From an uncultured Chloroflexia bacterium (GTDB lineage Bacteria > Chloroflexota > Limnocylindria > Limnocylindrales > CSP1-4), in NCBI GenBank assembly GCA_963731995.1, contig CAVSXV010000004.1, forward strand, positions 384,973 to 448,972: a stretch of DNA of 64,000 nt, given 5' to 3'. How positions within the stretch are numbered: the stretch's first letter is position 1; every line of letters starts with the position of its first letter. Positions 7,250 through 49,956 of the stretch are shown here, piece after piece. The notes beneath the pieces are model-generated. The model searched no databases. It was given only the letters and a program-made list of their open reading frames with translations, and had not been told where the DNA came from. Both the position numbers and the translations under genes were made by a program.

Positions 7250-8343
7250 CCTTCGGCAGGTTCGGCCGGCTCGTGGCCGGCCGACTCCGGCCGACCGATC
7301 CGCGACTGGGCCACGACGGCGTCTCGCCGCAGGCCCCGGAAGTCCTCGAGCGTCGTCCAGCCCCGGTCCGCGTGCTGCTCGAAGAAGGCCTCCATGCCGT
7401 CGATGAGCCCGCGCACCACGTTGGGCCCGATGGCCTTGTCGAGCATGGCCGCGGTCGCCACCTGGACCGTGCCGCAGCCGAGCAGGAAGAACGAGAGCGC
7501 ATCGGCCCAGGTCGAGATGCCGCCAACACCCGAGAACGAGCCGTCGGGATAGGCCTGCGTCATCTGCGCCATCTTGGCCAGCGACTGCATAAGGATGGCC
7601 GGTCCGCCGAGCCCGCCTGGTGAGACGAAGCCGTCGACGTTGATCTCGAACTCGAGCGTCTCGGGATCGATCGGTGGCAGCGACGGGAAGGTGTTCGACG
7701 AGACGATGGCATCGGCCCCGCCGCGGAACGTGGCGCCGGCCTCCTCCGCGATATCGGCCGTGGCCGGCGTGAGCTTGGCCCACACCGGGACCCGGGCCAC
7801 CTCCTTCACCGCCTGCGTCGTGGTCGATACCAGCGCCGCGTCCTTGCCCAAACCGGAGCCCATGTCATCGCGGTCCATGTGGGGACAGGAGTAGTTCAGC
7901 TCGACCGCGTCGACGCCCTCGTCCTGCACGGCCTGCACCAGTGTCTGCCAGGCCCGCATCTCTTCGTCCGAGCCCGACCCGGCCATGACCGAGGCCACCA
8001 GCACGTGGTCGGGATAGTCGCGCTTGATGGCGCTGAGCTTGCCGATCCACCAGTCGAGCGGCTTGTCGCTGATGAGTTCCCAGTTCCACGAGGCCATCAC
8101 CGTCGAGTCGGCGCGCTTGGACATGGATTTCAGCGAGCCGCTGTGATCCAGGCGCAGGAACTTCGTCTTGGGGCCGCGCACGTTGGTGACCTGGTGCAGG
8201 CCGATGGTCTTGGTCACCACACCACCCCAGCCTGCGTCGTAGGCCCGACGGATGTTCGATTCCGACTCGGTCGGCGGCGCCGAGGCGAGCATGAAGGGGT
8301 TCGGGAACTTGATGCCGGTGAAGGTGGTCGACAGATCGGCCAT
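7237..8343 (-). CDS. dihydroorotate/dihydropyrimidine dehydrogenase-like flavoenzyme (PreA-like TIM barrel, no ferredoxin domain)
   Basis: Start taken at ATG 8343 (GAGGAG 7 nt upstream): MADLSTTFTGIKFPNPFMLASAPPTESE...GWGGVVTKTI...VELNYSCPHM...VWAKLTP...GGLGGPAI. No C-terminal Cys clusters are present. Confidence 0.8.
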   Translation of the reverse strand: MADLSTTFTGIKFPNPFMLASAPPTESESNIRRAYDAGWGGVVTKTIGLHQVTNVRGPKTKFLRLDHSGSLKSMSKRADSTVMASWNWELISDKPLDWWIGKLSAIKRDYPDHVLVASVMAGSGSDEEMRAWQTLVQAVQDEGVDAVELNYSCPHMDRDDMGSGLGKDAALVSTTTQAVKEVARVPVWAKLTPATADIAEEAGATFRGGADAIVSSNTFPSLPPIDPETLEFEINVDGFVSPGGLGGPAILMQSLAKMAQMTQAYPDGSFSGVGGISTWADALSFFLLGCGTVQVATAAMLDKAIGPNVVRGLIDGMEAFFEQHADRGWTTLEDFRGLRRDAVVAQSRIGRPESAGHEPAEPAEGYAR

Positions 8344-28711: not shown

Positions 28712-28911
28712 CAGCCAGGAACCGCGCAGACACGTCGGGATTGCTCGCGTCGTGAGCAGTCCGGCTCGCGACCCGGTGCCGGGGCTGGTGCGAGGTGACG
28801 TCGGTCGGCCGACGGGCTACGAAGCCAGGAACCGCGCAGACACGTCGGGATTGCTCGCGTGGTGAGCAGTCCGGCTCGCGACCCGGGTGCACCAGGGGCT
28901 GGTGCGAGGTG
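28712..28911 (+). repeat. direct duplication of an ~88-nt element (110-nt period) in the pyrB leader
   Basis: 28712-28797 and 28822-28911 align. The first 64 nt have one mismatch (agccaggaaccgcgcagacacgtcgggattgctcgcgt[c/g]gtgagcagtccggctcgcgacccgg), then ggggctggtgcgaggtga follows. Small hairpins lie inside each copy (tgctc-n7-gagca; cgtcgg-tcgg-ccgacg). Confidence 0.8.
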
Positions 28912-28979
28912 AGCAGCCCGGCTCGGGACTCGGCGTACCAGCGACTGGTGCGTCGAGGCAACAGTTCGCTAGACTGAGA

Positions 28980-30083
28980 ATGCCCCCAATGCCCATACCC
29001 GTCGTGCCCTCGGGAGATCGCCCCATGTCCTCCGCGCTTGACAGCGTCGGCGTGTCCACCGGCTCTGCTGCGTTCACTCCACCAGCCATCGATGGCAACC
29101 TCACCGGCAAACACATCGTGTCGGTCGAACAGTTCGCCAGGCCCGATCTGGATGACTTGATCAGGGTCACCGCGGATCTTCGGAACCGCGTGAGGACCGG
29201 CGACCAGTCGGTGCTCAAGCTATGCCGGCGGCGCATCATGGCGACGCTCTTCTTCGAGGCCAGCACTCGTACCGACATGTCCTTCCAGGCGGCCATGCTC
29301 CGCCTCGGCGGCGAAGTCGTGGCCACCGCCGGTGGCGTCAAGTTCAGCTCCGTCTACAAGGGCGAGAACCTGGCCGACTCGGTGCGCGCCGCCGGTAGCT
29401 ACGCCGACGTGGTCGTGCTGCGCCACCCGGAGGTCCGCTCCTCGTACGAGGCGGCCTACCAGCTCGACCAGCTGACCACGCGGCTCGGCACCCGCGCCGT
29501 GGTCGTGAGCGGTGGCGACGGCGTGGGCGAGCATCCCACCCAGGCGCTGCTCGACCTCTTCACCATCGTCGACCACAAGGGCACCGCCGACGGCCAGACC
29601 GTCACGCTCGTGGGCGATCTCGCCCACGGCCGCACGGTCCACTCGCTGGCCAAGCTGCTTGCGCTCTACGGAGCAGAGGGGCTGCGTCTGGAGCTGGTCT
29701 CGCCCGAGTCGCTGCGGACACCGCAGGGCGTCATCGACTTCGTCAAGGCGCGCGGCGTGGAGGTCCACGAGACGAGCTCGCTCGACGAGGTCATCGGCAG
29801 CAGCGACGTCATCTACTGGACCCGCGTCCAGGAGGAGCGTTTCGAGGACAGGGCCGACTACGACGCCATCGCGGGCGACTTCGTGATGACGCCCGAGGTC
29901 CTGGCCGGGGCCGGCGGCGATGCCATCCTCATGCACCCGCTGCCGCGCAAGCACGAGATGGGTACCGAAGCCGATCACGCCATCCTCGACAACGACCCGA
30001 GGGCGGTCTACTTCCACCAGATGCAGAACGGCATGTACATGCGCATGGCCCTGCTGGCTGGTGTGCTCGGAGCGCACGAGTAG
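28980..30083 (+). CDS. pyrB: aspartate carbamoyltransferase catalytic chain
   Basis: LFFEASTRTDMSF, VVVLRHPE, GDGVGEHPTQALLDL, LVGDLAHGRTVHS, WTRVQEERF, MHPLPR. Alternative in-frame ATGs occur at 28989 and 29025; the ORF is open from 28887. Confidence 0.9.
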   Translation: MPPMPIPVVPSGDRPMSSALDSVGVSTGSAAFTPPAIDGNLTGKHIVSVEQFARPDLDDLIRVTADLRNRVRTGDQSVLKLCRRRIMATLFFEASTRTDMSFQAAMLRLGGEVVATAGGVKFSSVYKGENLADSVRAAGSYADVVVLRHPEVRSSYEAAYQLDQLTTRLGTRAVVVSGGDGVGEHPTQALLDLFTIVDHKGTADGQTVTLVGDLAHGRTVHSLAKLLALYGAEGLRLELVSPESLRTPQGVIDFVKARGVEVHETSSLDEVIGSSDVIYWTRVQEERFEDRADYDAIAGDFVMTPEVLAGAGGDAILMHPLPRKHEMGTEADHAILDNDPRAVYFHQMQNGMYMRMALLAGVLGAHE

Positions 30084-30110
30084 CGACCGAAACGACGGGG
30101 AGCGACGGGC

Positions 30111-31184
30111 GTGACGACTCTGCGGATCCCGGGCGCAGTGGACCCGCATGTCCACCTGCGCGACATGGACTGGGCCCACAAGGCCACCGTCGAGCGCGAG
30201 ACCGCGGCGGCCCTCGCGGGCGGCTACTGGGCCGTGCTCGACATGCCCAATACACCGCCCAACACCACGACCGCCGAGCGCATGCGTGCCAAGTGCGGCT
30301 TCGTCGCTGCCCGAGCTCGTTGCGACTTCGGGCTGTACCTGGGCGCCGACGCTGCGGCTGACGGCTCCGAGTACATGCGCGGTGCGCCGGACGCGGTCGG
30401 GCTCAAGATGTACTGCGACCACACCACCGGCTCGTTGTTGCTCGCCGACCAGGAGAGCCGCCGCCGGCACCTGCGCGCGTGGGCCGCGGCGACGGACAAG
30501 CCGGTCGCCGTCCACGCCGAGGGGGACACGCTGCGAGCGGTCTTGCAGCTGGTCCGCGAGGAACGAGTCCGCGTCCACTGCTGCCACGTCAGCCTCGCCT
30601 CCGAGATCCTCCTGTTGCGCGAGGCCAAGGCGGACGGCCTGCCGGTCAGCGTGGGGGTGACGCCCCACCATCTCTACCTGGACGCTGCCGACCGTGAACG
30701 GCTCGGCGGCTTCGCCATGGTCAAGCCGCCGCTGAAGACCGACGCCGATCGCGAAGCTCTGTGGGCCGCCGTGCTCGACGGCACCGTCGACACCATCGAG
30801 AGCGACCATGCGCCGCACACCCGCGAGGAGAAGTCGTCGGCGGACCCGCCCTTCGGTCTGCCCGGCCTGGAGACGACGGTGCCATTGATGGTCACCGCCA
30901 TGCGCGACCGCGGGCTGACCGAGCAACGGCTCATCGAGCTGCTCGCGAGCAACGCTCAGCGGCTCTTCGGCCTCGTGCGCCCGCCCGAGACGGAAACGCT
31001 CATCGACATCGAGTCGAGCTACGTCATCAGCGACGACGAGCTGCGCTGCAGCTCTGGCTGGTCGCCCTTCTCGGGCATGCGTGTCCGGGGCCGCGTGACA
31101 GAGGTCAGGGTGCGGGGTCGCGTCGTCTTCGACGGCGAGGACGTCATCGCCCAGGCGGGTGAGGGGAGGCGCCTGATCCCGTGA
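30111..31184 (+). CDS. pyrC: dihydroorotase, short CAD-like type
   Basis: GAVDPHVHLRDMDWAHK...AALAGGYWAVLDMPNTPP...VGLKMYCDHTTGSL (carboxylated-Lys position)...VAVHAEG...VHCCHVS...IESDHAPH. Confidence 0.85.
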   Translation: MTTLRIPGAVDPHVHLRDMDWAHKATVERETAAALAGGYWAVLDMPNTPPNTTTAERMRAKCGFVAARARCDFGLYLGADAAADGSEYMRGAPDAVGLKMYCDHTTGSLLLADQESRRRHLRAWAAATDKPVAVHAEGDTLRAVLQLVREERVRVHCCHVSLASEILLLREAKADGLPVSVGVTPHHLYLDAADRERLGGFAMVKPPLKTDADREALWAAVLDGTVDTIESDHAPHTREEKSSADPPFGLPGLETTVPLMVTAMRDRGLTEQRLIELLASNAQRLFGLVRPPETETLIDIESSYVISDDELRCSSGWSPFSGMRVRGRVTEVRVRGRVVFDGEDVIAQAGEGRRLIP

Positions 31185-32302
31185 TGCTCGAGCTCTACGA
31201 GCTGGCTTGGCGACCGGCAGCCGCGCTCATCGCCCGCACCGATGCGATGACGGCGCACGCCCTTACGGTCTCGATGATGCGCACGTTCGATGGGACCGGC
31301 CCGCTGCTCGGGGTCGTCCGACGGCTCAGCGCAGCCACCTTCCCGAAGCGGCCCACGCGGGTCGGCGGCGTGGACTTGCCCTACCCGCTCATCCTCGCTG
31401 CCGGCCTGGTCAAGGGTGACGGCTTCAGCCGCGAGGAAGAGGCGCTCGCCGCGGTCCGTGCAGGACAGGACATCATCCCCGGCTGGCGGTCGGCTCCGGC
31501 GTTGGTGGGGCCGGTCGAGTTCGGCTCCTATACCCGACACCCTCGTCTGGGCAACAGCGGACGCGTCCTCTGGCGCGACAGCGCGGCTGGCTGGATGCAG
31601 AACCGCGTGGGCCTGCGCAATCCCGGTGCCCGCGCGGCCTCCGCTCACCTTGCCCGCCACGCTGCCGAGCTGCCGGGGGTGTGGGGCCTCAACCTCGCGG
31701 TCAGCCCGGGCGTCTCCGATCCGGCGCAGAGTCGCGACGAGATCGTCGAGGCCGCCGGCTTCTTCCGCGACGCCTTCGCCGGTCTCGAGGCCGGCCCCTC
31801 GTGGTTGACGCTCAACCTCTCGTGTCCCAACACCGAGGACGACCCGCGCGGGGTCGGTTCGGCGGAGCTGGCGCGCGTGCTCTGCGGCGCCCTCGTCGAG
31901 ACGGCCAAGGTGCCGGTGTGGGCCAAGATCGGTCCTGATCTCTCGGACCAGCAGCTGGCGGGCCTCGTCGCGGCCTTCGCCCAGACCGGTGTGCGCGCGG
32001 TCGTGGCCACCAACACCCAGGCCCGTCCCGTGCCCGGCGGCCACGGCTTGGCCGGTGTCAGTGGCTCGCGCCTGCGGTCCAGCGCGCTCGACGTGGTCGC
32101 GCGACTGAACCGGACCATCGATGTGTCCGGGCTGCCCCTCGACATCATCGCCGGCGGCGGCATCCTCGAGGGGACCGACCTGCGCGCATTCCGGGCGGCC
32201 GGTGCTCGAGCCGCGATGCTCTACACCGCGATGGTGCTGCGCGGTCCGCTGGCGGCGGCGCTGATCCTGCGAGAAGCCGAAGAGGGAGAGCCAGATGCCT
32301 GA
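31181..32302 (+). CDS. pyrD: dihydroorotate dehydrogenase (quinone-type, class 2-like)
   Basis: GTGATG at 31181-31186 overlaps the pyrC stop. ...LILAAGLVKGDG...VEFGSYT...NRVGLRNPGA...LNLSCPNT...VWAKIGPD...VVATNT...GVSGSRL...IIAGGGI. Confidence 0.85.
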   Translation: MMLELYELAWRPAAALIARTDAMTAHALTVSMMRTFDGTGPLLGVVRRLSAATFPKRPTRVGGVDLPYPLILAAGLVKGDGFSREEEALAAVRAGQDIIPGWRSAPALVGPVEFGSYTRHPRLGNSGRVLWRDSAAGWMQNRVGLRNPGARAASAHLARHAAELPGVWGLNLAVSPGVSDPAQSRDEIVEAAGFFRDAFAGLEAGPSWLTLNLSCPNTEDDPRGVGSAELARVLCGALVETAKVPVWAKIGPDLSDQQLAGLVAAFAQTGVRAVVATNTQARPVPGGHGLAGVSGSRLRSSALDVVARLNRTIDVSGLPLDIIAGGGILEGTDLRAFRAAGARAAMLYTAMVLRGPLAAALILREAEEGEPDA

Positions 32303-32928
32303 GGACACGCGGGCCGCAACGGTCGCCCGCGCGCTGCTGGCGGCCGGCACGGTCATGCTCACCCCCCACGAGCCAGTCACCTTCAAGTCAGGCCTGCGCT
32401 CCCCGGTCTACGTCGACAACCGACGACTCATCTTCGAGCCCGATCCGTGGCGCGTCGTCATCAGCGCCTTCGCAGCGGCGCTGCCCGAGGGCCAGCCGGT
32501 CATCGCCGGCGTGGAGAGCGCCGGTATCCCCCATAGCAGCGCGCTGGCCTTCTCGACCGGCCTGCCCTCGGTCTTCGTGCGCAAGACAGCCAAGGGACAC
32601 GGTCTCGGTCGCCGTATCGAGGGCGGCGACGTCGCAAGGGCGCCGGGTGATCCTGGTCGAGGATATGGTCACCACCGGCGGCTCGAGCCTATCAGCGGTG
32701 AAGGCCTTGCGAGCCGCGGGCGCGGAGGTCACCGACTGCCTCGCCATCATCACCTACGGCTTCGCCGAAGCGATCGCCGCGTTCGATGCGGCCGGCGTGA
32801 CCCTGACCACGCTGACCACCTTCGAGACGGTCGTGGCCCAGGCCCTTGAGGCCGGCGCCATCGACGAACCGGAAGCTGGGCTCGTCCGCTCGTGGCTGGC
32901 TGCTCCTCATGGCTGGGACGGCCGATGA
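32295..32928 (+). pseudogene. pyrE: orotate phosphoribosyltransferase with one apparent +1 insertion
   Basis: MPEDTRAATVARALLAAGTVMLTPHEPVTFKSGLRSPVYVDNR...IAGVESAGIPHSSALA...RIEGGDVA | (G)RRVILVEDMVTTGGSSL (PRPP loop)...The extra base lies in caaggg at about 32636-32640. Start overlaps the pyrD stop; stop overlaps the pyrF start. Confidence 0.8.
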
Positions 32929-37899: not shown

Positions 37900-38685
37900 C
37901 TATTCGGCCGAGGCTTGCGGTGGGCCCGGCAGCGCAGGCAAGTCGCCTTGCCAGGTCAAGCCCACCCAGTCGAGGCCGACGTCCGCCTCTTTCGTCAGCA
38001 GCATCTGCGCCGCGTAACCTTCGTAGCCGCCCTCACCGACACACCACTTCATGACCGGCACCTTCATGAGTGAGACTTCGCCGCCCGACCAGGTGCACTC
38101 CCAAGCCCCACCGTCGTTCTCGATCCGCTCGGTGCCCCACTGGGTCACGGCAGGCTGGCCCCAGTCCGGCGGCACCAGGTGGCTGTCCTGGTTGAGCGTC
38201 CCGGTCAGCGTTCCTGCCAAGCGTGGGTCAGAGGCCTCGATGATGCCCTCGTACACCTGGCCTCGCAGCTCCTCCAGGTTCCTCCCGTCTTCTGGGACCG
38301 TCTTCTCTCCGAAGTCGGGGAAGCTCAGGATGCGCACAAGGCCCTGCGAGTACTTGGACTCGTAGCCGGTCGGCTCCGCGGCGGCAGCCTCCGCCGAGTC
38401 CTGCAACGGAGAAGTGCTCGGCTGCTCCGCGCCTGGTGGGGCGACGACGCCGTCGTCTGGCGCGAGCCCACCAGGTGTAGCGAGGAGGAAGGCCGCTCCG
38501 GCGGCTGCCAGGATGCTCGCGGCCGCGGCGAACTTGATCGGACTTGACATGTTGATGTACCTCCAACGGGGGGATGTGGTCTTGGCTTGGCGCGTGATCG
38601 CCAGCGCATCGACGTTCCGAGGGGGCCCGACCTCGTAGTCGATCTCGTCGGCGAGCTGGCGCTCGAAGGCGTTTCGGTTATCCAT
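37900..38685 (-). CDS. single-pass membrane protein co-transcribed with the ECF sigma factor (putative anti-sigma factor)
   Basis: The start overlaps the sigma-factor stop by 8 nt (38678-38685). A 45-aa cytoplasmic N-terminus precedes TM helix IKFAAAASILAAAGAAFLLA and an extracytoplasmic domain of about 190 aa. Confidence 0.6.
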   Translation of the reverse strand: MDNRNAFERQLADEIDYEVGPPRNVDALAITRQAKTTSPRWRYINMSSPIKFAAAASILAAAGAAFLLATPGGLAPDDGVVAPPGAEQPSTSPLQDSAEAAAAEPTGYESKYSQGLVRILSFPDFGEKTVPEDGRNLEELRGQVYEGIIEASDPRLAGTLTGTLNQDSHLVPPDWGQPAVTQWGTERIENDGGAWECTWSGGEVSLMKVPVMKWCVGEGGYEGYAAQMLLTKEADVGLDWVGLTWQGDLPALPGPPQASAE

Positions 38686-39232
38686 CGCTGAGCTCCTGCC
38701 GGAGTCGGTCGTTCAGTCGTTCGAGTCGGTTGCGGATGCCTGACGGTGTGATGCCGACGACTGCCGCCAGCTCAGTGGCGTTGAAGCCGGCCACGTACCG
38801 CAGCGCCAGCAGCGCGCGGTCGTCGGGCTCGAGTCGCTTGAGTGCTTCGCGCAGGTCGAGCGCATCGATGCCGGTCTCGGGATTGCGGCCGCTCGGCGCA
38901 CCGAACCCGGCTACGAGCAATTCCACCTCCCAGCGTCGTCCGCGCTTCTTGAGACCACGTTTGGCCTCATTGACGGCGACGCGCATGAGCCACGACCGCA
39001 GTTTCGTTGCTTCGCGGACCGAGCCGAGCTTGCGCCAGGCGATCGCCCAGGCTGCCTGTACCGCGTCCTCGGCCAGGTCGTTGTCGCGCGTGATGAAGAC
39101 GCATACGCGGCGCATGTCATCGTGATAGGCATCGACGATCTGGGCGAAGGCGAACTCGTCACCCTCCGCGGCCGACGCCAGGGCCCCGACGAACTGTTGC
39201 TCAGCCACGGCCGTCTCTGCTTCCCATGACAA
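38678..39232 (-). CDS. ECF-type RNA polymerase sigma-70 family factor
   Basis: Region 2: DDMRRVCVFITRDNDLAEDAVQAAWAIAWRKL...SWLMRVAVNEA. Region 4: LEPDDRALLALRYVAGFNATELAAVVGITPSGIRNRLER. Confidence 0.85.
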   Translation of the reverse strand: MSWEAETAVAEQQFVGALASAAEGDEFAFAQIVDAYHDDMRRVCVFITRDNDLAEDAVQAAWAIAWRKLGSVREATKLRSWLMRVAVNEAKRGLKKRGRRWEVELLVAGFGAPSGRNPETGIDALDLREALKRLEPDDRALLALRYVAGFNATELAAVVGITPSGIRNRLERLNDRLRQELSDG

Positions 39233-42173: not shown

Positions 42174-42262
42174 CTCGGGGGTGCTCGAGGATCGCCGCGC
42201 AGGGCCTTCTCCATGTAACAAGGGCGACGACCAGACGTCGTACGCCTGGCGCCACGAAGAAA

Positions 42263-42288
42263 CGCGGCACCCTCCTCCAGGTGCCGCG
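42263..42288 (-). terminator. intrinsic terminator of the transcarbamylase/PLP operon
   Basis: On the minus strand: CGCGGCACC-tggaggag-GGTGCCGCG (perfect 9-bp stem) followed by TTTCTTCG, 26 nt after the stop at 42314. Confidence 0.55.
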
Positions 42289-42313
42289 TCCGTCGTTGGC
42301 GTGTGTGCGGGGA

Positions 42314-43292
42314 TCAGCCCATGGTCAGGGCCATCACCGCCTTCTGGGCATGGAGTCGGTTCTCGGCCTCGTCGAAGGCCGCCGACTTGGGGCCGTCGAT
42401 GACCGCATCGGCCACCTCGACACCACGGTCGGCCGGCAGCGGATGCATCCAGATGGCATCGTCCGCCGTCATGGCCATGCGACGCTCATCGGAGATCCAG
42501 TCGGTGTACTGCGCCGCGATCTTGGCGCCTTCCTCGTCGTCGACGCCGAGGGTATGTGCCCCCCATGACTTGGCGTAGACCACGTCGGCGCCGTCGAAGC
42601 CGGCATCGAAGTCATCGAGCTGCTCGAACTTCCCACCGGCCTTGGCCACGTTGGCCCTGGCCTCTTCCATGATCTGCGGCATCAGCTTGAACTCGGGTGG
42701 ATGAACCAGCTTCACGTCCATGCCGAAGCGGGTCGCGGCCAGCAGTAGTGACTGCGGCACGGAGATGGGCTTCTGGTAGCTCGAGGCGTAGGCCCAGCTG
42801 ATGGTGATCGACTGACCCTTGAGGCGGCCCTTCTTCTCGATGATGGTCATCAGGTCCGCGAGGATCTGGAAGGGGTGGTACGTCTCGCACTGCATGTTGA
42901 GCACGGGCACGCGAGAGGCCTCGGCCACGGCGCGGATGTACTCGTTGCCCTCACCCGGAGGTGACGTGGCGGATGGCGATGCCATCGTTGTAGCGGCCCA
43001 GGATCTCGCCGATCTCCGTGGCCGTATCGCCGTGGGCGATCTGTGTGGTGCGGCTCTCCATGAACATGCCGTGCCCGCCGAGCTGGGCCATGCCCGCCTC
43101 GAACGAGGCACGCGTGCGGGTGCTGCTGAAGAAGAACAGCATGGCCAGCGTCTTGTCCAGGAGGTACGCGTGGCGCTCGCCGAGCGCCCGCTTGCGCTTG
43201 AGGTCGAAGGCCACGTCGAGCGCGGTCTCGATCTCCTCGTTGGTCCAGTCCGAGAGCGCGATCAGGTCGCGCCCGCGAAGTCCGGTCTGCAT
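42314..43292 (-). pseudogene. YgeW-type (knotted) carbamoyltransferase, one apparent +1 insertion
   Basis: MQTGLRGRDLIALSDWTNEEIE...FFFSSTRTRASFEAGMAQLGG...TQIAHGDTATEIGEILGRYNDGIAIR... | GEGNEYIRAVAEASRVPVLNMQCETYHPFQILADL...ISWAYASSYQKPISVPQSLLLAATRFGMDVKLVHP...WMHPLPADRG. Frame change near 42955-42965. Confidence 0.75.
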
Positions 43293-43301
43293 CGCAGGCC
43301 C

Positions 43302-44259
43302 CTACTCGGCCTTGCCGAGGACCAGGGTCAGCAGCGCCATGCGCATGACCACGCCGTTGAAGGCCTCGACCCAGTAGCGGCCGAAGCGCGTCTCGTCCAC
43401 GTCCTCGGTGAGCTCGTCCATGCGCGGCAGGCTGTGCAGCACGAAGGCGTTGCGCTTGGCCTTCTCGTGCAGCAGCTTGAGGTTGACGACGGTACTCGGG
43501 CGGGGTGAGGCCCTTCTCGACGTCCTGCTCGTCCACGCGACCCTTGGTGTAGTCGGCCTGCACGACCGGCTCCATGTAGATGACATCGGCCTCGCCGATG
43601 ACGTCGCGGATGTCGCCGACCTCGCGGTAGTAGGTGGAGCGCTCGTCGAGCTCAGCCTTGAACTCGGGCAGCAGGCTCATCTCGTCGGGGCCGATGATGA
43701 TGGCTTCCATGTCGAAGCGCGACATGGCGTAGAGGATGGAGTGCATGGTGCGCATGCGCATGTCGCCCACGAGGATGACCTTGAGCCCGTCGAGGGTGCC
43801 GTGCTCCTTCCAGATGGTGTAGAGGTCGGTCAGCACCTGCGTGGGGTGCTCGCCCCAGCCGTCGCCGCAGTTGATGACGGGCACGGACGACCACTTGGCG
43901 GCCTCGTGCGGGGCGCCCTGCTGGAAGTGCCGGATGGCGATGACGTCGCCGTAGTACTCCAGCATGTGGAAGGTGTCCTTGATCGACTCCATGTAGAAGT
44001 CGCCGGCGCGGGTCATCTTGGCGTCGCTGAAGCCGAGCACGTGGCCGCCGAGGCGGTGCATCGCGGCCTCGGTCGAGAGGCGCGTACGGGTGGACGGCTG
44101 GTAGAACGCGGTCAGCAGCGTCTTGTCGGCCAGGAGGTCGGTGTTGCGGCGGTCGCGCGCGATGGGGGCCAGGTCGTCGCAGACCTGGAAGATGCGCAGG
44201 TACTCGTCGCGGGTCATGTCCTTGAGGGACAGGATGTCGCGGCCCTTGAAGCTTCTCAT
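43302..44259 (-). pseudogene. aspartate-carbamoyltransferase-like transcarbamylase of unknown acceptor, one apparent +1 insertion
   Basis: MRSFKGRDILSLKDMTRDEY...AFYQPSTRTRLSTEAAMHRLGG...IAIRH...GDGWGEHPTQVLTDL...LVGDMRMRTMHS...MEPVVQADY...LTPPEY | VVNLKLLHEKAKRNAFVLHSLPRMDE...Frame change near 43491. The ATG overlaps the upstream stop (ATGA, 44256-44259). Confidence 0.75.
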
Positions 44260-45658
44260 CGGGGGTGTTCGTCCTCCTGCTGCTTGTGCGGCACGACCGA
44301 CGATCGTCGGACGCCGCTGAAGATCACTGCCACGGTCTCGTCCGGGCTGACGAGTCCGTCGCGGGTGAGCTGGATCAGGCCGGCCAGGCCGGCAGTTCCG
44401 GTGTGGTCGGCATCGATGCCCGTCTCGCGTCGGGCCAGGGCATTGGCGGCTTCGAGCGTGGCCTCGTCGACCACGACCGAGCGTCCGCCGGTGATGAGCA
44501 TGGCACGCACGACGGCTGCCCAATCGTACGTCTCGTCATCGAGGATGCCATGGGCGACCGACACCGGTTCGGTCTCCCAGGCCCACATGTAGTCCGAGCG
44601 GTGATGCACCGCCTGTGAGATGGCGCCGGCGACAGCCTCCGGGTCGGCCGGTGTGCCCGCGGCGACCAGCAGGTGCTCCAGCGCGCGGTCGTGTGCCCGC
44701 TTGAGCGGGTAGCCGCCCTGCGTCTGGACGGTGTCGATGACCGGCAGCTCCGCGAGCTGACCGAAGGCGACAGCCTCTTCGAGCGCCTGCGCCGCGGCCG
44801 AAGCGAAGGCCCCACCGCCGACGTGGATGATCAGCCGGTCCAGCGCCGAAGCGTCGTCGGCCAGCTCGTCGACGAGCTCCCAGGCCAGCGTCTGCCCGCC
44901 CTCGATGGCGAGCCCGTTGAGGTTGCCTTGCACGGTGAAGGGCACGGCTCCTTCGGCGATGGCCTGCATCAATCGATGGACGGTGGGGTCACCCGACTGG
45001 CCCGACTGTCGCTCGCAGACTTCGAGCTCCGCTCCGAGCGAGTCGAGCCGGGCTACCACGGCTGGCTCGGCACTGGGCGGCACGAAGACCAGCAGGCGGC
45101 GCTGCGCTGCCCGGGCCACGACGGCGGCGGCCAGCGCGGCGTTGCCGCAGGAGGCGATGGCCAGGGGTGCGCTCGGGTCAGCGGTGCCGATCGACTCAGC
45201 CACCTTGAGCGCGAGCATCACGCCCATCAGGTGACGCGCCTTGTGCGAGCCCGAGACGTTGCCGGTCTCGTCCTTGACCCAGACACCGCCAGCAGTCGCG
45301 AAACCGAGCTCGGCGTCGAGCCCGGACGAACGCAGGATGGGTGTGACTCGGAAGCCCTTCCCGTCGACCGCAGCGACAGCGTCGTCGAGCTCGCCGACCA
45401 GGTCCACGTAGCGTCCGTCGCTCCAACCGGCAGCGCGGGCCACGTGGTACGAGTGGAACCGCCGCCGGTAGCGCACGAAGGGGTTGGCGCTCGGTTCGGC
45501 ATCCGGCTGGCCATCGGCCGCGGCCGGGTCGAGGACTCGCCGCAAGACGTGGTCGATGTCATCGCCGGGGCGTGCCGCCGGGCAGGCCCAGGTGATGGGA
45601 TCGTCGGCCGGGACCTCGGCGCCGCAACCGGCGCACACGAGGCGGGAGGCCGGTTGGC

Positions 45659-45662
<4 letters not shown>
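44256..45662 (-). CDS. threonine-synthase-like fold-type-II PLP enzyme with N-terminal Cys ribbon
   Basis: GTG 45662 overlaps the upstream stop (GTGA). VSQPASRLVCAGCGAEV...WACP...VWVKDETGNVSGSHKARH (PLP Lys)...ASCGNAALAAA...HVGGGAF...TGTAGLAGL. Confidence 0.8.
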
Positions 45663-47161
<1,499 letters not shown>

Positions 47162-47310
47162 CGTCTGTCTTTGCCGTCGTCGAAGCAGGACTGCGCCTCA
47201 TCGTGCGACTGGCCTGGCGGCATGTGCCCTGATCTTCCGGGCGGCAGCGTTGCCAGCAGGTTTGCCTAGCCTAACGGTGTCCGATAAGGGTAGGGTGTCG
47301 CTAGGGCCAC

Positions 47311-49956
47311 ATGGCCCCGCGATACGCACGGATGGCAGGACTCGTGGACATCAACCTCAACGGCCAGAGTCGCTCGGTCGACTTCACCCCCGGCACCTCG
47401 CTGCTGCAGCTCTTGCGCAACGAGCTCGGCCTCCGCTCGATGAAGGACGGCTGTGCTCCCGAGGGCTCTTGTGGCGCCTGCACGGTCATCGTCGATGGCC
47501 GTCCGGTGGTCTCCTGTGCCCAACCCGCGGAGCGCTTCGCGGGCAAGGACATCGAGACGCTCGAGGGCCTGCCCGAGGACTCGCGTGACCTGTGGGCGGA
47601 CGCCTTCAGCGCCACCGGTGCGTCGCAGTGCGGCTACTGCACCCCCGGCATCGTGATGAAGGCGGAGGCGCTGCTGCGCCGCGAGGCCGAACCCGGGCGC
47701 GAGACCATCACCAAGGCTCTCGCGGGCAACCTCTGTCGCTGCACCGGCTATCTCTCGATCATCGACGCCATCGGCCAGGTGGCAGCTGCGCGGGCCGGTG
47801 GGCCCCGACCGGTGCCGCATCCGGGCGCCGCGGTCGGCGACCCCGCGCCCAAGTACCGCTCACGCGAGCAGGTGCTGGGGATGCAGGAGTACGTGGCTGA
47901 CCACGTGGTGCCGGGCATGCTCCATGGCGCACTGCGCTTCAGCGACCACCCACGCGCGGTGGTGGTGTCGATCGATACGACAGCAGCCGAGGCGGCCGAG
48001 GGCGTGGTCGCGGTCATCACCGCCGCCGATGTCCCGGGCAAGCGCAACCAGGGCCTCATCACGGACGACTGGCGGCAGCTGGTGGCGGTGGGGGAGACGA
48101 CGCGATACGTAGGCGACGTGCTCGCGGCGGTGGCGGCCGAGACGCGCGCCCAGGCACGTGCGGCGGCGGAGCTGATCGAGATCGAGTACGAGGTGCTGGA
48201 GCCCGTGACCGATCCGTTCGAGGCCATGGCCGAGGGTGCGCCACGCATCGCGCCCGAGGGCAACGTGCTCTCGGAGTCGGCCTACGCCCGGGGTGACGTG
48301 GAGGCTGCCCTGGCCGCCTCTGCGCACGTCGTGAGTGACACCTTCAGGACAGCTGGCATCGAGCATGCCTATCTCGAGCCCGAGTCCTCGCTGGCCGTGC
48401 CCCAGGACGGGAAGGGTCCGCGCATGCACGTCCTCTCGCAGGGCCAGGGTGCCTGGGAAGACCGTCGACAGATCGCCTCGCTGCTCGGCTGGGAGCAGGC
48501 TGACGTGCTCGTCACACAGGTGGCCACCGGTGGTGCCTTTGGTGGCAAGGAGGACCTCAACGTCCAGGGCCACGCGGCGCTGTTGGCACTGGCGGCCGAG
48601 CGCCCGGTGCTGCTGGCGCTGAGCCGTGCCGACTCGCTGCGCTTCTCCATCAAGCGCCACCGTTTCTGGATGGAGTACACCGTCGGCTGCGACGCCGAAG
48701 GAAAGCTCACCGCGGTCAAGGCCCGCTTCATCGGCGACAACGGCGGCTACGCGAGCGTCGGTGCCAAGGTGCTCGAGCGCGCCGCCGGGCACGCCTGCAG
48801 CGCCTACGAGGTGCCCAACGTCGATGTCCAGGCCAACGCCATCCTGACCAACAACCCGCCCTGCGGCGCGATGCGCGGCTTCGGGGCCAACCAGGCCAAC
48901 TTCGGCATGGAGACGTGCCTCGACCGTCTCGCAGAGTCGGTCGGCATCGACGGCTGGGAGATCCGCTGGCGCAACGCGCTCGAGACCGGCAAGCGATTCG
49001 GGACCGGCCAGAAGCTGGGTCCAGGCGTGGGCCTCAGGGACACGCTGCTGGCGGTCAAGGACCAGTACCGGAACGCCAAGTACGCGGGCATCGCCTGCGG
49101 TGCCAAGAACACCGGCATCGGCAACGGCATGAAGGAGTACGGCCGTGCGGTCGTGCGTCCCGAGGGCGACGGCCGATTGACCGTCTTCCACTCCTGGACG
49201 GAGATGGGACAGGGCACCCACACGGTCATGCGCCAGATCGCCAGCGACGAGCTCGACCTGCAGCCAGAGGCCATCGAGGTCCGCGTCGATACTACGCACG
49301 AGCTGGACACCGGCATCACCACCGCCTCACGCGCCACGATGCTCGGCGGGCGTGCGGTGCTCAAGGCCTGTCAGGCGCTCCGCGCCGAGATGGTCAGGCG
49401 ACGCTGCCTGCTCGACGACCTCGCCGGGGAGGAGTTCCCCGCCGAGATCCTCATCGACTGGACGACCAAGCTGGGCGATGACGTCGAGGAGCCCATCACG
49501 CACTTCGGCTACGGCTGGGCCACGCAGGTCTGCATCCTCGACGAGGAGGGGGCCATCGAGAAGTTCGTGGCCGCCCACGACGTGGGCAAGGCGCTCGACC
49601 CGCTGATGCTGGAAGGCCAGGTCGTCGGCGGCGTGCACATGGGCCTGGGCCACACGCTCTCCGAGACGTTCGAGACCGAGGGCGGCTTCCCGGTCACCGA
49701 CACCGTCAAGTCGCTCAACATCATCCCCGCTGCGGGCATGCCGCCGGTGGAGACGATCCTCGTCGAGGAGTTCCAGCCCGAGGGTCCGTACGGTGCCAAG
49801 GGCATGGGCGAGGCCGTGCTGGTGCCGACCGCCGCGGCGGTGGCCGGCGCGCTCTACGCCTTCGACGGCATCCGGCGCACTGACCTGCCGATGCGCGATT
49901 CGCCCGCGGCCCTCGCGGCCGTGCCGAAGCTCAAGCGCCTGCTGGCCAAGGGCTGA
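47311..49956 (+). CDS. fused [2Fe-2S]-ferredoxin / molybdopterin hydroxylase (Mop/XdhD-like aldehyde- or purine-type oxidoreductase, no FAD subunit)
   Basis: N-terminus: INLNGQSRSVDF...KDGCAPEGSCGACTVIVDG...SCAQP...QCGYCTPGIVM...GNLCRCTGY. It is followed by ~730 aa of the CoxL/XdhB-type MoCo domain (GGAFGGKED, CGAMRGFGANQ, GQGTHT, GPYGAKGMGE). The start may be ATG 47332. Confidence 0.9.
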   Translation: MAPRYARMAGLVDINLNGQSRSVDFTPGTSLLQLLRNELGLRSMKDGCAPEGSCGACTVIVDGRPVVSCAQPAERFAGKDIETLEGLPEDSRDLWADAFSATGASQCGYCTPGIVMKAEALLRREAEPGRETITKALAGNLCRCTGYLSIIDAIGQVAAARAGGPRPVPHPGAAVGDPAPKYRSREQVLGMQEYVADHVVPGMLHGALRFSDHPRAVVVSIDTTAAEAAEGVVAVITAADVPGKRNQGLITDDWRQLVAVGETTRYVGDVLAAVAAETRAQARAAAELIEIEYEVLEPVTDPFEAMAEGAPRIAPEGNVLSESAYARGDVEAALAASAHVVSDTFRTAGIEHAYLEPESSLAVPQDGKGPRMHVLSQGQGAWEDRRQIASLLGWEQADVLVTQVATGGAFGGKEDLNVQGHAALLALAAERPVLLALSRADSLRFSIKRHRFWMEYTVGCDAEGKLTAVKARFIGDNGGYASVGAKVLERAAGHACSAYEVPNVDVQANAILTNNPPCGAMRGFGANQANFGMETCLDRLAESVGIDGWEIRWRNALETGKRFGTGQKLGPGVGLRDTLLAVKDQYRNAKYAGIACGAKNTGIGNGMKEYGRAVVRPEGDGRLTVFHSWTEMGQGTHTVMRQIASDELDLQPEAIEVRVDTTHELDTGITTASRATMLGGRAVLKACQALRAEMVRRRCLLDDLAGEEFPAEILIDWTTKLGDDVEEPITHFGYGWATQVCILDEEGAIEKFVAAHDVGKALDPLMLEGQVVGGVHMGLGHTLSETFETEGGFPVTDTVKSLNIIPAAGMPPVETILVEEFQPEGPYGAKGMGEAVLVPTAAAVAGALYAFDGIRRTDLPMRDSPAALAAVPKLKRLLAKG

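Follow-up and report, generated by a model that had tools for sequence, protein, structure and literature searches.

A 64-kb stretch of contig CAVSXV010000004.1 from an uncultured Chloroflexia bacterium, hereafter the window (G+C content 68.5%), harbors four co-directional minus-strand genes and a divergent plus-strand gene for a molybdenum enzyme. The four genes encode two fold-type-II pyridoxal phosphate (PLP) enzymes, designated PLP1 and PLP2, an aspartate transcarbamylase (ATCase)-like protein and a YgeW-like carbamoyltransferase. The cluster probably belongs to a Chloroflexota version of reductive urate degradation (the 2,8-dioxopurine or "yanthine" route), of which it holds the molybdenum enzyme and the downstream half, since the molybdenum enzyme passed the cut-off of TIGR03311 and since genes for SsnA, YgfK/UacX and carbamate kinase adjoin the corresponding genes in relatives. 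The features are as follows.

47161..45659, minus strand: PLP1 gene, 500 aa
45662..44256, minus strand: PLP2 gene, 468 aa, GTG start
44259..43302, minus strand: ATCase-like gene, 318 aa once one base is removed (extra C at 43491-43492)
43292..42314, minus strand: YgeW-like gene, 325 aa once one base is removed (GGG at 42954-42956)
47311..49956, plus strand: gene for an XdhAC-type fused 2Fe-2S and molybdopterin enzyme, 881 aa
47162..47310: divergent intergenic region of 149 bp (from the coordinates), with the presumed promoters for both transcription units
42255..42292, minus strand: terminator-like hairpin after the last gene (RNA fold), followed by a weak U-tract

The pathway of reductive urate degradation was elucidated in 2025, in gut bacteria only, and how, and in which sequence, its ureido groups are cleaved is still in question (PMC12990295). 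Urate is converted to 2,8-dioxopurine by XdhD-YgfM or XdhAC, 2,8-dioxopurine to dihydro-yanthine by YgfK or UacX, dihydro-yanthine to ureidomethyl-hydantoin by the ring-opening amidohydrolase SsnA, and ureidomethyl-hydantoin to 2,3-diureidopropionate by the hydantoinase HyuA. The latter yields a mono-ureido acid and carbamoyl phosphate by the action of YgeW, with adenosine triphosphate (ATP) formed via the carbamate kinase YqeA, or is hydrolyzed by UacY; the mono-ureido acid is converted to 2,3-diaminopropionate by the amidase YgeY, and this to pyruvate and ammonia by the 2,3-diaminopropionate ammonia-lyase YgeX (PMC12507026; bioRxiv 10.1101/2025.04.24.650524; PMC12990295). The earlier note on this DNA could match the gene combination to no pathway it could name, a view that is now outdated, as 2,3-diureidopropionate and 2,3-diaminopropionate are intermediates of this pathway. 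Its suggestion of a catabolic route through ureido and diamino-acid intermediates to carbamoyl phosphate fits well, given the SsnA, YgfK/UacX and carbamate kinase genes of the relatives. A Chloroflexota cluster was already mentioned in 2025 by Li et al. at the Pfam level, with PF00291 read as YgeX and PF00185 as YgeW (PMC12507026). In the literature searched, neither the arrangement with two transcarbamylases, nor PLP1-PLP2 in place of YgeX, nor the lack of HyuA and YgeY was found described.

The molybdenum enzyme contains the Pfam domains Fer2, Fer2_2, Ald_Xan_dh_C, MoCoBD_1 and MoCoBD_2 in one fused chain. It scored 904.6 bits against TIGR03311 ("selenium-dependent xanthine dehydrogenase"), above the cut-off of 830.45. 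No YgfM, the flavin adenine dinucleotide (FAD) subunit, was found anywhere in the window. By its domain content and profile score it is thus an XdhAC-type, FAD-less Mo/2Fe-2S enzyme, and it is predicted to interconvert urate and 2,8-dioxopurine. Its Limnocylindria relatives are 63-67% identical to the window protein, and relatives of the enzyme share 26-28% identity with E. coli XdhD. The C. difficile enzyme assigned to the urate to 2,8-dioxopurine step is similarly distant from E. coli XdhD (PMC12507026). The earlier note had placed a divergent 881-aa 2Fe-2S/molybdenum-cofactor gene about 150 bp from the operon, and this was borne out.

The ATCase-like protein is composed of OTCace_N and OTCace domains. 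It passed TIGR00670 marginally (244.0 bits, cut-off 236.95) and failed NF002032 (220.9 bits, cut-off 263). The earlier note had read it as an ATCase relative that keeps the carbamoyl-phosphate motifs and has an altered aspartate motif. This reading was confirmed, as the protein keeps STRTR, HPTQ, MRTMHS and HSLP, carries EPVVQADYT in place of TRVQKER and Phe-Tyr in place of the Lys pair of the 80s loop, and both the kept motifs and the two replacements are invariant in 25 homologues. The ligand of the alpha-carboxylate is kept (R167 equivalent, in MRTMHS), whereas the beta-carboxylate ligands (R229 and Q231) are lost, as is K84. A true aspartate transcarbamylase was ruled out by these motifs despite the marginal TIGR00670 score. 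Judged by its motifs, the protein can be counted among the "pseudo-ATCases" as understood by Barba et al. (PMC4016543), a group that includes the ureidoglycine carbamoyltransferase Rxyl_2847 and falls into three RxQ-replacement groups (PMC4016543 Table 1). It shares with the pseudo-ATCases of 2013 the ATCase-branch fold, the STRT, HPTQ and H(S/T)LP motifs, the loss of the RxQ aspartate motif and a purine-catabolic context. A pseudo-ATCase gene adjoining a ygeW homologue, as in the window, was already reported in 2013 for subgroup 2, that of Nocardioides JS614 (PMC4016543). In comparison with the published motifs, the window protein differs in its 240s loop, which reads PVV instead of AIA/AIS/SIA, GX[SC] or VXP, as well as in the Phe-Tyr replacement, and the neighboring genes are those for the PLP pair and, in relatives, SsnA, and not allantoinase. 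A genuine pyrB, which the earlier note had reported from the same window, is indeed present at 28887-30083 with GRTVHS and RVQEER. This gene also has HPLP, but STRTD for STRTR, and its N-terminus as called is apparently over-long. The pyrimidine cluster at 28887-32302 looks normal, with pyrB followed by a pyrC-like dihydroorotase gene (30111-31184) and a dihydroorotate dehydrogenase (DHODH)-like gene (31181-32302).

The last gene of the operon was called YgeW-type in the earlier note, and that label holds for its motifs and active-site residues but not at the level of the NCBIfam equivalogs. The protein scored 176.1 bits against TIGR03316 (cut-off 500) and 182.5 bits against NF005538 (cut-off 453), and its highest scores, about 259 bits, were with the OTCase and AOTCase models, below their cut-offs. 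Its relatives share 35-37% identity with E. coli YgeW. All carbamoyl-phosphate ligands of E. coli YgeW are kept except for C330→P. Among the six residues proposed to bind the second substrate of YgeW, five (Q160, S200, K203, K270 and L331) are kept in all 24 family members, in which the sixth, D124, is replaced by H or N. The proline-rich loop, a signature of knotted transcarbamylases, is present in the window protein as SWAYASSYQKPISVPQS; YQKPISVPQS aligns to YGKPLSVPQG of YgeW. The motifs TQIAHGDT, GEGNEY, NMQCxxxHPxQ and YAKSW are likewise common to YgeW (YTCase; PDB 3Q98, 2YFK) and the window protein. The latter differs in being shorter by about 70 residues (325 aa vs. 396 aa), in having HPLP where YgeW has H[AVC]LP and, according to the alignment, in lacking the helices that YgeW has at either terminus, its insertion in the 120s loop and the two extra helices of its 240s loop (features of YgeW from PMC4581275). 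Hence, because the cut-offs were missed and the terminal helices and loop insertions are missing while the motif blocks are kept, the protein is, by alignment, a short YgeW-like enzyme and not a YgeW equivalog.

Profile hidden Markov model and structure-prediction searches, which the earlier note had called for, placed PLP1 in the CysK/cystathionine beta-synthase (CBS) clade and PLP2 in the ThrC/racemase clade. PLP1 scored 31 bits with PALP and 58 bits with the cysK models (cut-off 351), and both its profile search and its AlphaFold2 model (mean predicted local distance difference test, pLDDT, 86.9) matched cysteine synthase, CBS and beta-cyanoalanine synthase. Invariant in the family are K117, STGN at 145-148 and SAxGSxG at 260-266. 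By profile and model, the protein thus belongs to the CysK/CBS clade of fold-type-II PLP enzymes and carries helical extensions at both termini. It is 58-66% identical between Chloroflexota, Actinomycetota and Pseudomonadota, with a mean column identity of 72-77% and more than 150 invariant columns. The invariant blocks include NLGYYTWVEQQ and GFGEHNIQGIGDKH, the latter modelled with low confidence (pLDDT < 50 at 288-291 and 297-313). PLP2 scored 119 bits with PALP, 77 bits with the best ThrC model (cut-off 303) and 33.9 bits with TIGR00260 (cut-off 167). Its profile and AlphaFold2 model (pLDDT 85.6) matched threonine synthase, serine racemase, threonine deaminase and CapA2, and C10, C13, C27, H38, K141, SCGNAA, GGGA and GILDDETYDW are invariant. 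As far as profile and model indicate, PLP2 is a fold-type-II PLP enzyme of the ThrC/serine-racemase/dehydratase clade with an N-terminal Cys3-His ribbon. The earlier note had described it as a 469-aa ThrC-like protein with a CxxC ribbon, of which the clade and the ribbon were upheld and the length is corrected to 468 aa from the GTG start. Both proteins fell far below every curated CysK, ThrC, SbnA and dehydratase cut-off in NCBIfam. The family searches with PLP1 and PLP2 each gave at least about 7,800-8,000 candidates at E ≤ 0.001, other fold-type-II enzymes included.

PLP1 or PLP2 as a divergent YgeX was ruled out, since sequence, profile and fold searches all led to the CysK/CBS and ThrC/racemase clades. 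The PLP pair shares with YgeX the PLP fold, the catalytic Lys, the Asn-loop, the Gly-rich phosphate loop and the position in the cluster. The tblastn search with YgeX gave no match to the pair, the PLP2 profile matched 4D9G with an E-value no better than 3e-4, and two proteins take the place of the single enzyme of E. coli. PLP1 further differs from YgeX and other fold-type-II enzymes in being extended by about 100 aa at both termini, and PLP2 in its Cys3-His ribbon.

The membership of PLP1 in the beta-replacement (CysK/CBS) clade is compatible with a biosynthetic role, which the earlier note had offered as its second option; a ureido amino acid, for instance albizziin (beta-ureidoalanine), would then be made for use in a secondary metabolite. 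Diaminopropionate transcarbamylases and CysK-like diaminopropionate synthases are found in the viomycin and zwittermicin clusters (PMC4581275). However, the HDLP and (T/S)RWQTTG motifs of the diaminopropionate transcarbamylases occur in neither transcarbamylase of the window (PMC4581275), no nonribosomal peptide synthetase, polyketide synthase or tailoring genes were found in the window or in the relatives, and the conserved neighbors are carbamate kinase, SsnA, YgfK and purine/nucleoside transporters. The biosynthetic option has thus found no support, and we regard it as highly improbable.

The genomic organization of relatives was analyzed in a set of 84 loci. A scan for PLP1 with one genome per species gave at least about 600 encoding stretches, of which the best 80 were examined, and four further loci came from an exact-protein look-up. 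PLP2 lies directly downstream of PLP1 in 74 of the 74 loci with room for it. An ATCase-like gene is present in 29 of the 84 loci, mostly of Chloroflexia and Limnocylindria. These 29 loci contain a YgeW-like gene in 25 cases, an XdhAC-type enzyme in 27, an SsnA homologue in 21, a carbamate kinase in 16 (often directly after the second transcarbamylase), a UacX-like DHODH/Fer4 protein in 12 and YgfK in five. The co-occurrence of the operon genes, for which the earlier note had proposed a neighborhood analysis, therefore exceeds chance, with PLP2 following PLP1 throughout and the YgeW-like gene accompanying the ATCase-like gene in most loci. The neighboring SsnA reached 427 bits against a cut-off of 444, just short of it, and is 37-42% identical to E. 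coli SsnA. The neighboring YgfK scored 880 bits against TIGR03315 (cut-off 835), and the carbamate kinase scored 364 bits against arcC (cut-off 358) and is 46-49% identical to YqeA. Neither HyuA nor YgeX was found in any of the 29 loci, and the YgeY family (M20) gave one weak match among them; YgeX was absent from all 84 loci. A tblastn search with E. coli YgeX and YgeY gave no match in the window or in the first 81 loci, and HyuA matched in L052 and L067 alone.

The nearest known counterparts are the urate clusters of E. coli, C. difficile and C. sporogenes. The window shares with these the FAD-less XdhAC-type molybdenum enzyme, a YgeW-like carbamoyltransferase gene (frameshifted here) and, by prediction, both the ureido and diamino-C3 intermediates and the gain of ATP through carbamoyl phosphate, and the relatives add SsnA, YgfK or UacX and a downstream carbamate kinase. 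The differences are that HyuA, YgeY and YgeX are missing from the Chloroflexota clusters, the ATCase-like gene and PLP1-PLP2 standing there instead, that the upstream genes and the carbamate kinase are not adjacent in the window, and that the hosts are soil Chloroflexota and not gut anaerobes. In L084 a single operon carries PLP1, PLP2, XdhAC, SsnA, a luciferase-like gene, two transcarbamylases and carbamate kinase. The luciferase-like gene encodes the putative F420 reductase reported for Chloroflexota by Li et al. (PMC12507026). The candidate yanthine reductases near the genes of relatives are YgfK, the UacX-like DHODH/Fer4 (PreA) protein or the F420 luciferase-like protein. In the alphaproteobacterial loci (Rhodovulum sp. 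PH10, L030; L052), the PLP pair follows XdhAC and SsnA, and Amidohydro_3 (UacY family) and M20 (YgeY family) genes are also present, together with HyuA in L052. As judged from gene order, the PLP pair occupies the YgeX slot in these clusters. A second, divergent SsnA-like amidohydrolase gene, encoding a protein 30-32% identical to the SsnA representative, was observed in L009 (8695-9963) and L011 (8691-9959), where it sits between XdhAC and PLP1 while the other SsnA gene adjoins YgfK. This amidohydrolase could be a candidate for the missing hydantoin-opening step.

A cluster of the same logic may instead act on another oxidized N-heterocycle (a purine, a pterin or a pyrimidine-like ring), with intermediates other than those of the urate pathway. 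The low identity of the molybdenum enzymes to E. coli XdhD, the lack of HyuA, YgeY and YgeX alike, and an ATCase-like 240s-loop motif outside the three published pseudo-ATCase groups (PMC4016543) would agree with it. So would six loci (L008, L012, L022, L029, L045 and L050) in which the PLP genes accompany adenine deaminase (TIGR01178, above the cut-off), an AspC/GntC-like aminotransferase and a cytosine/purine permease, sometimes with an 800-aa transketolase-like protein. L045 and L050 additionally carry E. coli-type XdhD, YgfM and YqeB, and this pairing with XdhD-YgfM-YqeB, adenine deaminase, aminotransferase and purine permease is found in Streptosporangiaceae and some Chloroflexi. On the other hand, SsnA and YgfK, the signature enzymes of the yanthine route, adjoin the genes at or near the equivalog level, the YgeW-like enzyme conserves the proposed substrate-binding residues of YgeW, and the accepted first-step enzyme of C. 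difficile is equally far from E. coli XdhD (PMC12507026). A substrate other than urate is accordingly considered unlikely.

In the urate variant proposed here, the ring-opened product 2,3-diureidopropionate would be decarbamoylated twice by phosphorolysis. The YgeW-like enzyme would take off one ureido group, probably the 3-ureido group by analogy with citrulline-type substrates. The ATCase-like enzyme would remove the N-alpha-carbamoyl group as a phosphorolytic replacement for the hydrolytic YgeY. It would suit N-alpha-carbamoyl-diaminopropionate because the alpha-carboxylate ligand is kept and the beta-carboxylate ligands are lost. Each carbamoyl phosphate would then give one ATP through a carbamate kinase encoded outside the window. 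The translationally coupled PLP1-PLP2 pair may stand in place of YgeX and convert 2,3-diaminopropionate or its mono-ureido derivative into pyruvate and ammonia, since proteobacterial clusters with hydrolytic decarbamoylases also have PLP1-PLP2 and not YgeX. Candidate divisions of work between the two proteins are a racemase plus a lyase, or a heteromer. A bolder proposal, which we hold only tentatively, is a "fully phosphorolytic" reductive purine degradation in Chloroflexota and several other soil and freshwater phyla, in which a catabolic ATCase-like enzyme and a minimal YgeW-like enzyme would recover both ureido groups of 2,3-diureidopropionate as carbamoyl phosphate with a yield of two ATP per urate, and PLP1-PLP2 would form an obligate two-enzyme system for the terminal C3 reaction, unlike YgeX. 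The pair would possibly be heteromeric in that case, and perhaps its reaction would also do away with the need for a hydantoinase.

Several observations weigh against the urate variant. The 64-kb window lacks SsnA, a YgfK/UacX-type reductase, carbamate kinase and hydantoinase; apart from the pyrC-like gene, its one pathway-like hit is a weak match of DHODH type at 7360-8322. A weak HyuA-like hit at 30573-31175 turned out to be this pyrC-like gene of the normal pyr cluster and was discarded. No HyuA-type hydantoinase lies near the 29 ATCase-like loci, and one canonical step is therefore unaccounted for. PLP1 and PLP2 resemble YgeX in the shared fold alone, and the present sequence formally shows the two transcarbamylase genes as disrupted. 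The nearest relatives (L001-L005 and L070) are arranged as in the window, with SsnA, reductase and kinase not adjacent, and L006 keeps YgfK and SsnA.

The PLP pair also occurs without transcarbamylases in 55 of the 84 loci, so that its role may be broader or different. It may be a self-standing amino-acid module (e.g., for a beta-substituted-alanine, serine or threonine-type reaction) that some lineages recruited to a place beside purine genes; purine catabolism would then comprise just the molybdenum enzyme and the transcarbamylases. In Acidimicrobiia the pair is located among housekeeping genes, which in Ilumatobacteraceae are ClpP, XerC, MurI and rpsB, and the very high conservation of PLP1 across phyla agrees with such a module. 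At positions 1982-12704 of L085, a 5.6-Mb contig, PLP1-PLP2, the ATCase-like gene and carbamate kinase come after an ATP-binding cassette (ABC) transporter of the LivK type (for branched-chain amino acids or amides), which ties the pair to an amino-acid-type transporter; a transposase gene lies downstream, and no Xdh or SsnA is present within 10 kb. This locus suggests that the downstream module can act on an imported ureido or diamino acid. Nevertheless, an ATGA overlap in the window couples translation of the pair to that of the transcarbamylases, at least four architectures from Chloroflexota, Actinomycetota and Pseudomonadota place it by XdhAC/XdhD and SsnA, and YgeX is absent from all of these. 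We give the self-standing module about the same small chance as a different substrate.

Neither transcarbamylase gene is an intact open reading frame (ORF) in this sequence; the earlier note had taken both as intact, and each proved to contain one inserted base. In the ATCase-like gene the frame changes at 43491-43492 (GAGTA-C-CGT, where relatives carry one C), and in the YgeW-like gene a TGA at 42951-42953 follows an extra G in GGG at 42954-42956 (GG in relatives). According to nucleotide alignments with six to eight relatives, both insertions lengthen homopolymers, from C to CC and from GG to GGG. Deletion of one base per site restores proteins of 318 aa and 325 aa that are collinear with intact homologues. 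Both genes are intact in L001, L002, L003, L005, L006 and L070, and the restored proteins are 94-97% identical to the intact L001 ORFs, with no further lesions. For fifteen genes of the window, related contigs offered an intact ORF for comparison, and three of the fifteen are frameshifted, namely, the two transcarbamylase genes and a pyrE-like gene. The latter encodes an orotate phosphoribosyltransferase (32502-32922, motif GRRVILVEDMVTTGGSS), and its frame changes near 32637 relative to an intact 140-aa ORF of L070. This third frameshift, in a housekeeping gene, suggests assembly indel errors across the window. The related contigs are from metagenome-assembled Chloroflexia genomes, the closest being CAVQPG010000006.1 with 89% nucleotide identity, and are presumably long-read assemblies. 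They show frameshifts scattered at other positions of the same conserved genes. In L003, L004, L010, L013, L018, L021, L027, L039, L065 and L070, conserved genes of the cluster (PLP1, PLP2, XdhAC or ATCase-like) were split into two tblastn segments in different frames, with a different break position each time, which is consistent with frequent consensus indels.

The two transcarbamylase insertions are most likely long-read assembly errors, because six relatives have intact genes and the pyrE-like gene has the same kind of defect. The opposite view, that the operon is a decaying remnant, with genuine pseudogenes for both transcarbamylases and with the remaining pathway genes gone from this genome, would draw on the occurrence of two frameshifts within 550 bp, precisely in the two transcarbamylase genes, and on the absence of SsnA, reductase and carbamate kinase from 64 kb. 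Yet both lesions are +1 homopolymer errors of the kind also seen in pyrE, the restored proteins are nearly identical to the intact orthologues, and the closest relatives have the same split arrangement with intact genes. A decaying remnant is thus very unlikely.

The order of the four-gene operon was borne out by the coordinates as the earlier note had described it, with a GTGA overlap of PLP1 and PLP2 at 45659-45662, an ATGA overlap of PLP2 and the ATCase-like gene at 44256-44259 and a 9-nt gap (43293-43301) before the YgeW-like gene, and every motif quoted there was found in the sequence. Of the 9-bp hairpin and T-tract reported after the last gene, the hairpin proved stable, with a stem of about 13 bp by folding at about 42260-42291 (fold energy of the 72-nt stretch -35.9 kcal/mol, z = -2.86), but the tract that follows is just UUUCUU. 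The consensus terminator scan gave no match at the hairpin, whose loop and T-run fell outside its criteria. No sigma-70 consensus was detected by the promoter scan in the 149-bp divergent spacer. A riboswitch or leader RNA in the spacer or the operon was ruled out; no Rfam family was found in either, the sole hit being malK-III at a chance-level E-value, and the repeats of the spacer are weak. The exact-sequence look-up of the window PLP1 in public assemblies gave no record. Elsewhere in the window, a gene for an extracytoplasmic function (ECF)-type sigma factor occupies 38678-39232 of the minus strand, and its end overlaps with the beginning of a downstream gene for a 261-aa protein (37900-38685) that resembles an anti-sigma or membrane protein; these genes are unrelated to the urate-type cluster.

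The neighborhoods point to a rewired downstream half of the urate pathway in environmental Chloroflexota, Actinomycetota and Proteobacteria. Coloring of gene neighborhoods at the Pfam level, with PF00291 taken as YgeX and PF00185 as YgeW, hides such non-orthologous replacements, and the proteins are consistently labelled aspartate carbamoyltransferase, cysteine synthase and threonine synthase in public records. A lineage with two dedicated transcarbamylases represents a natural experiment on how the ureido groups are cleaved, in which each enzyme would be expected to act on just one of these groups. Under the proposal, the functions of the pseudo-ATCase clade and of the very widespread, highly conserved PLP pair become directly testable. 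If true, it would provide a function for a pseudo-ATCase clade left without one since 2013 as well as functions for two large families misannotated as "cysteine synthase" and "threonine synthase".

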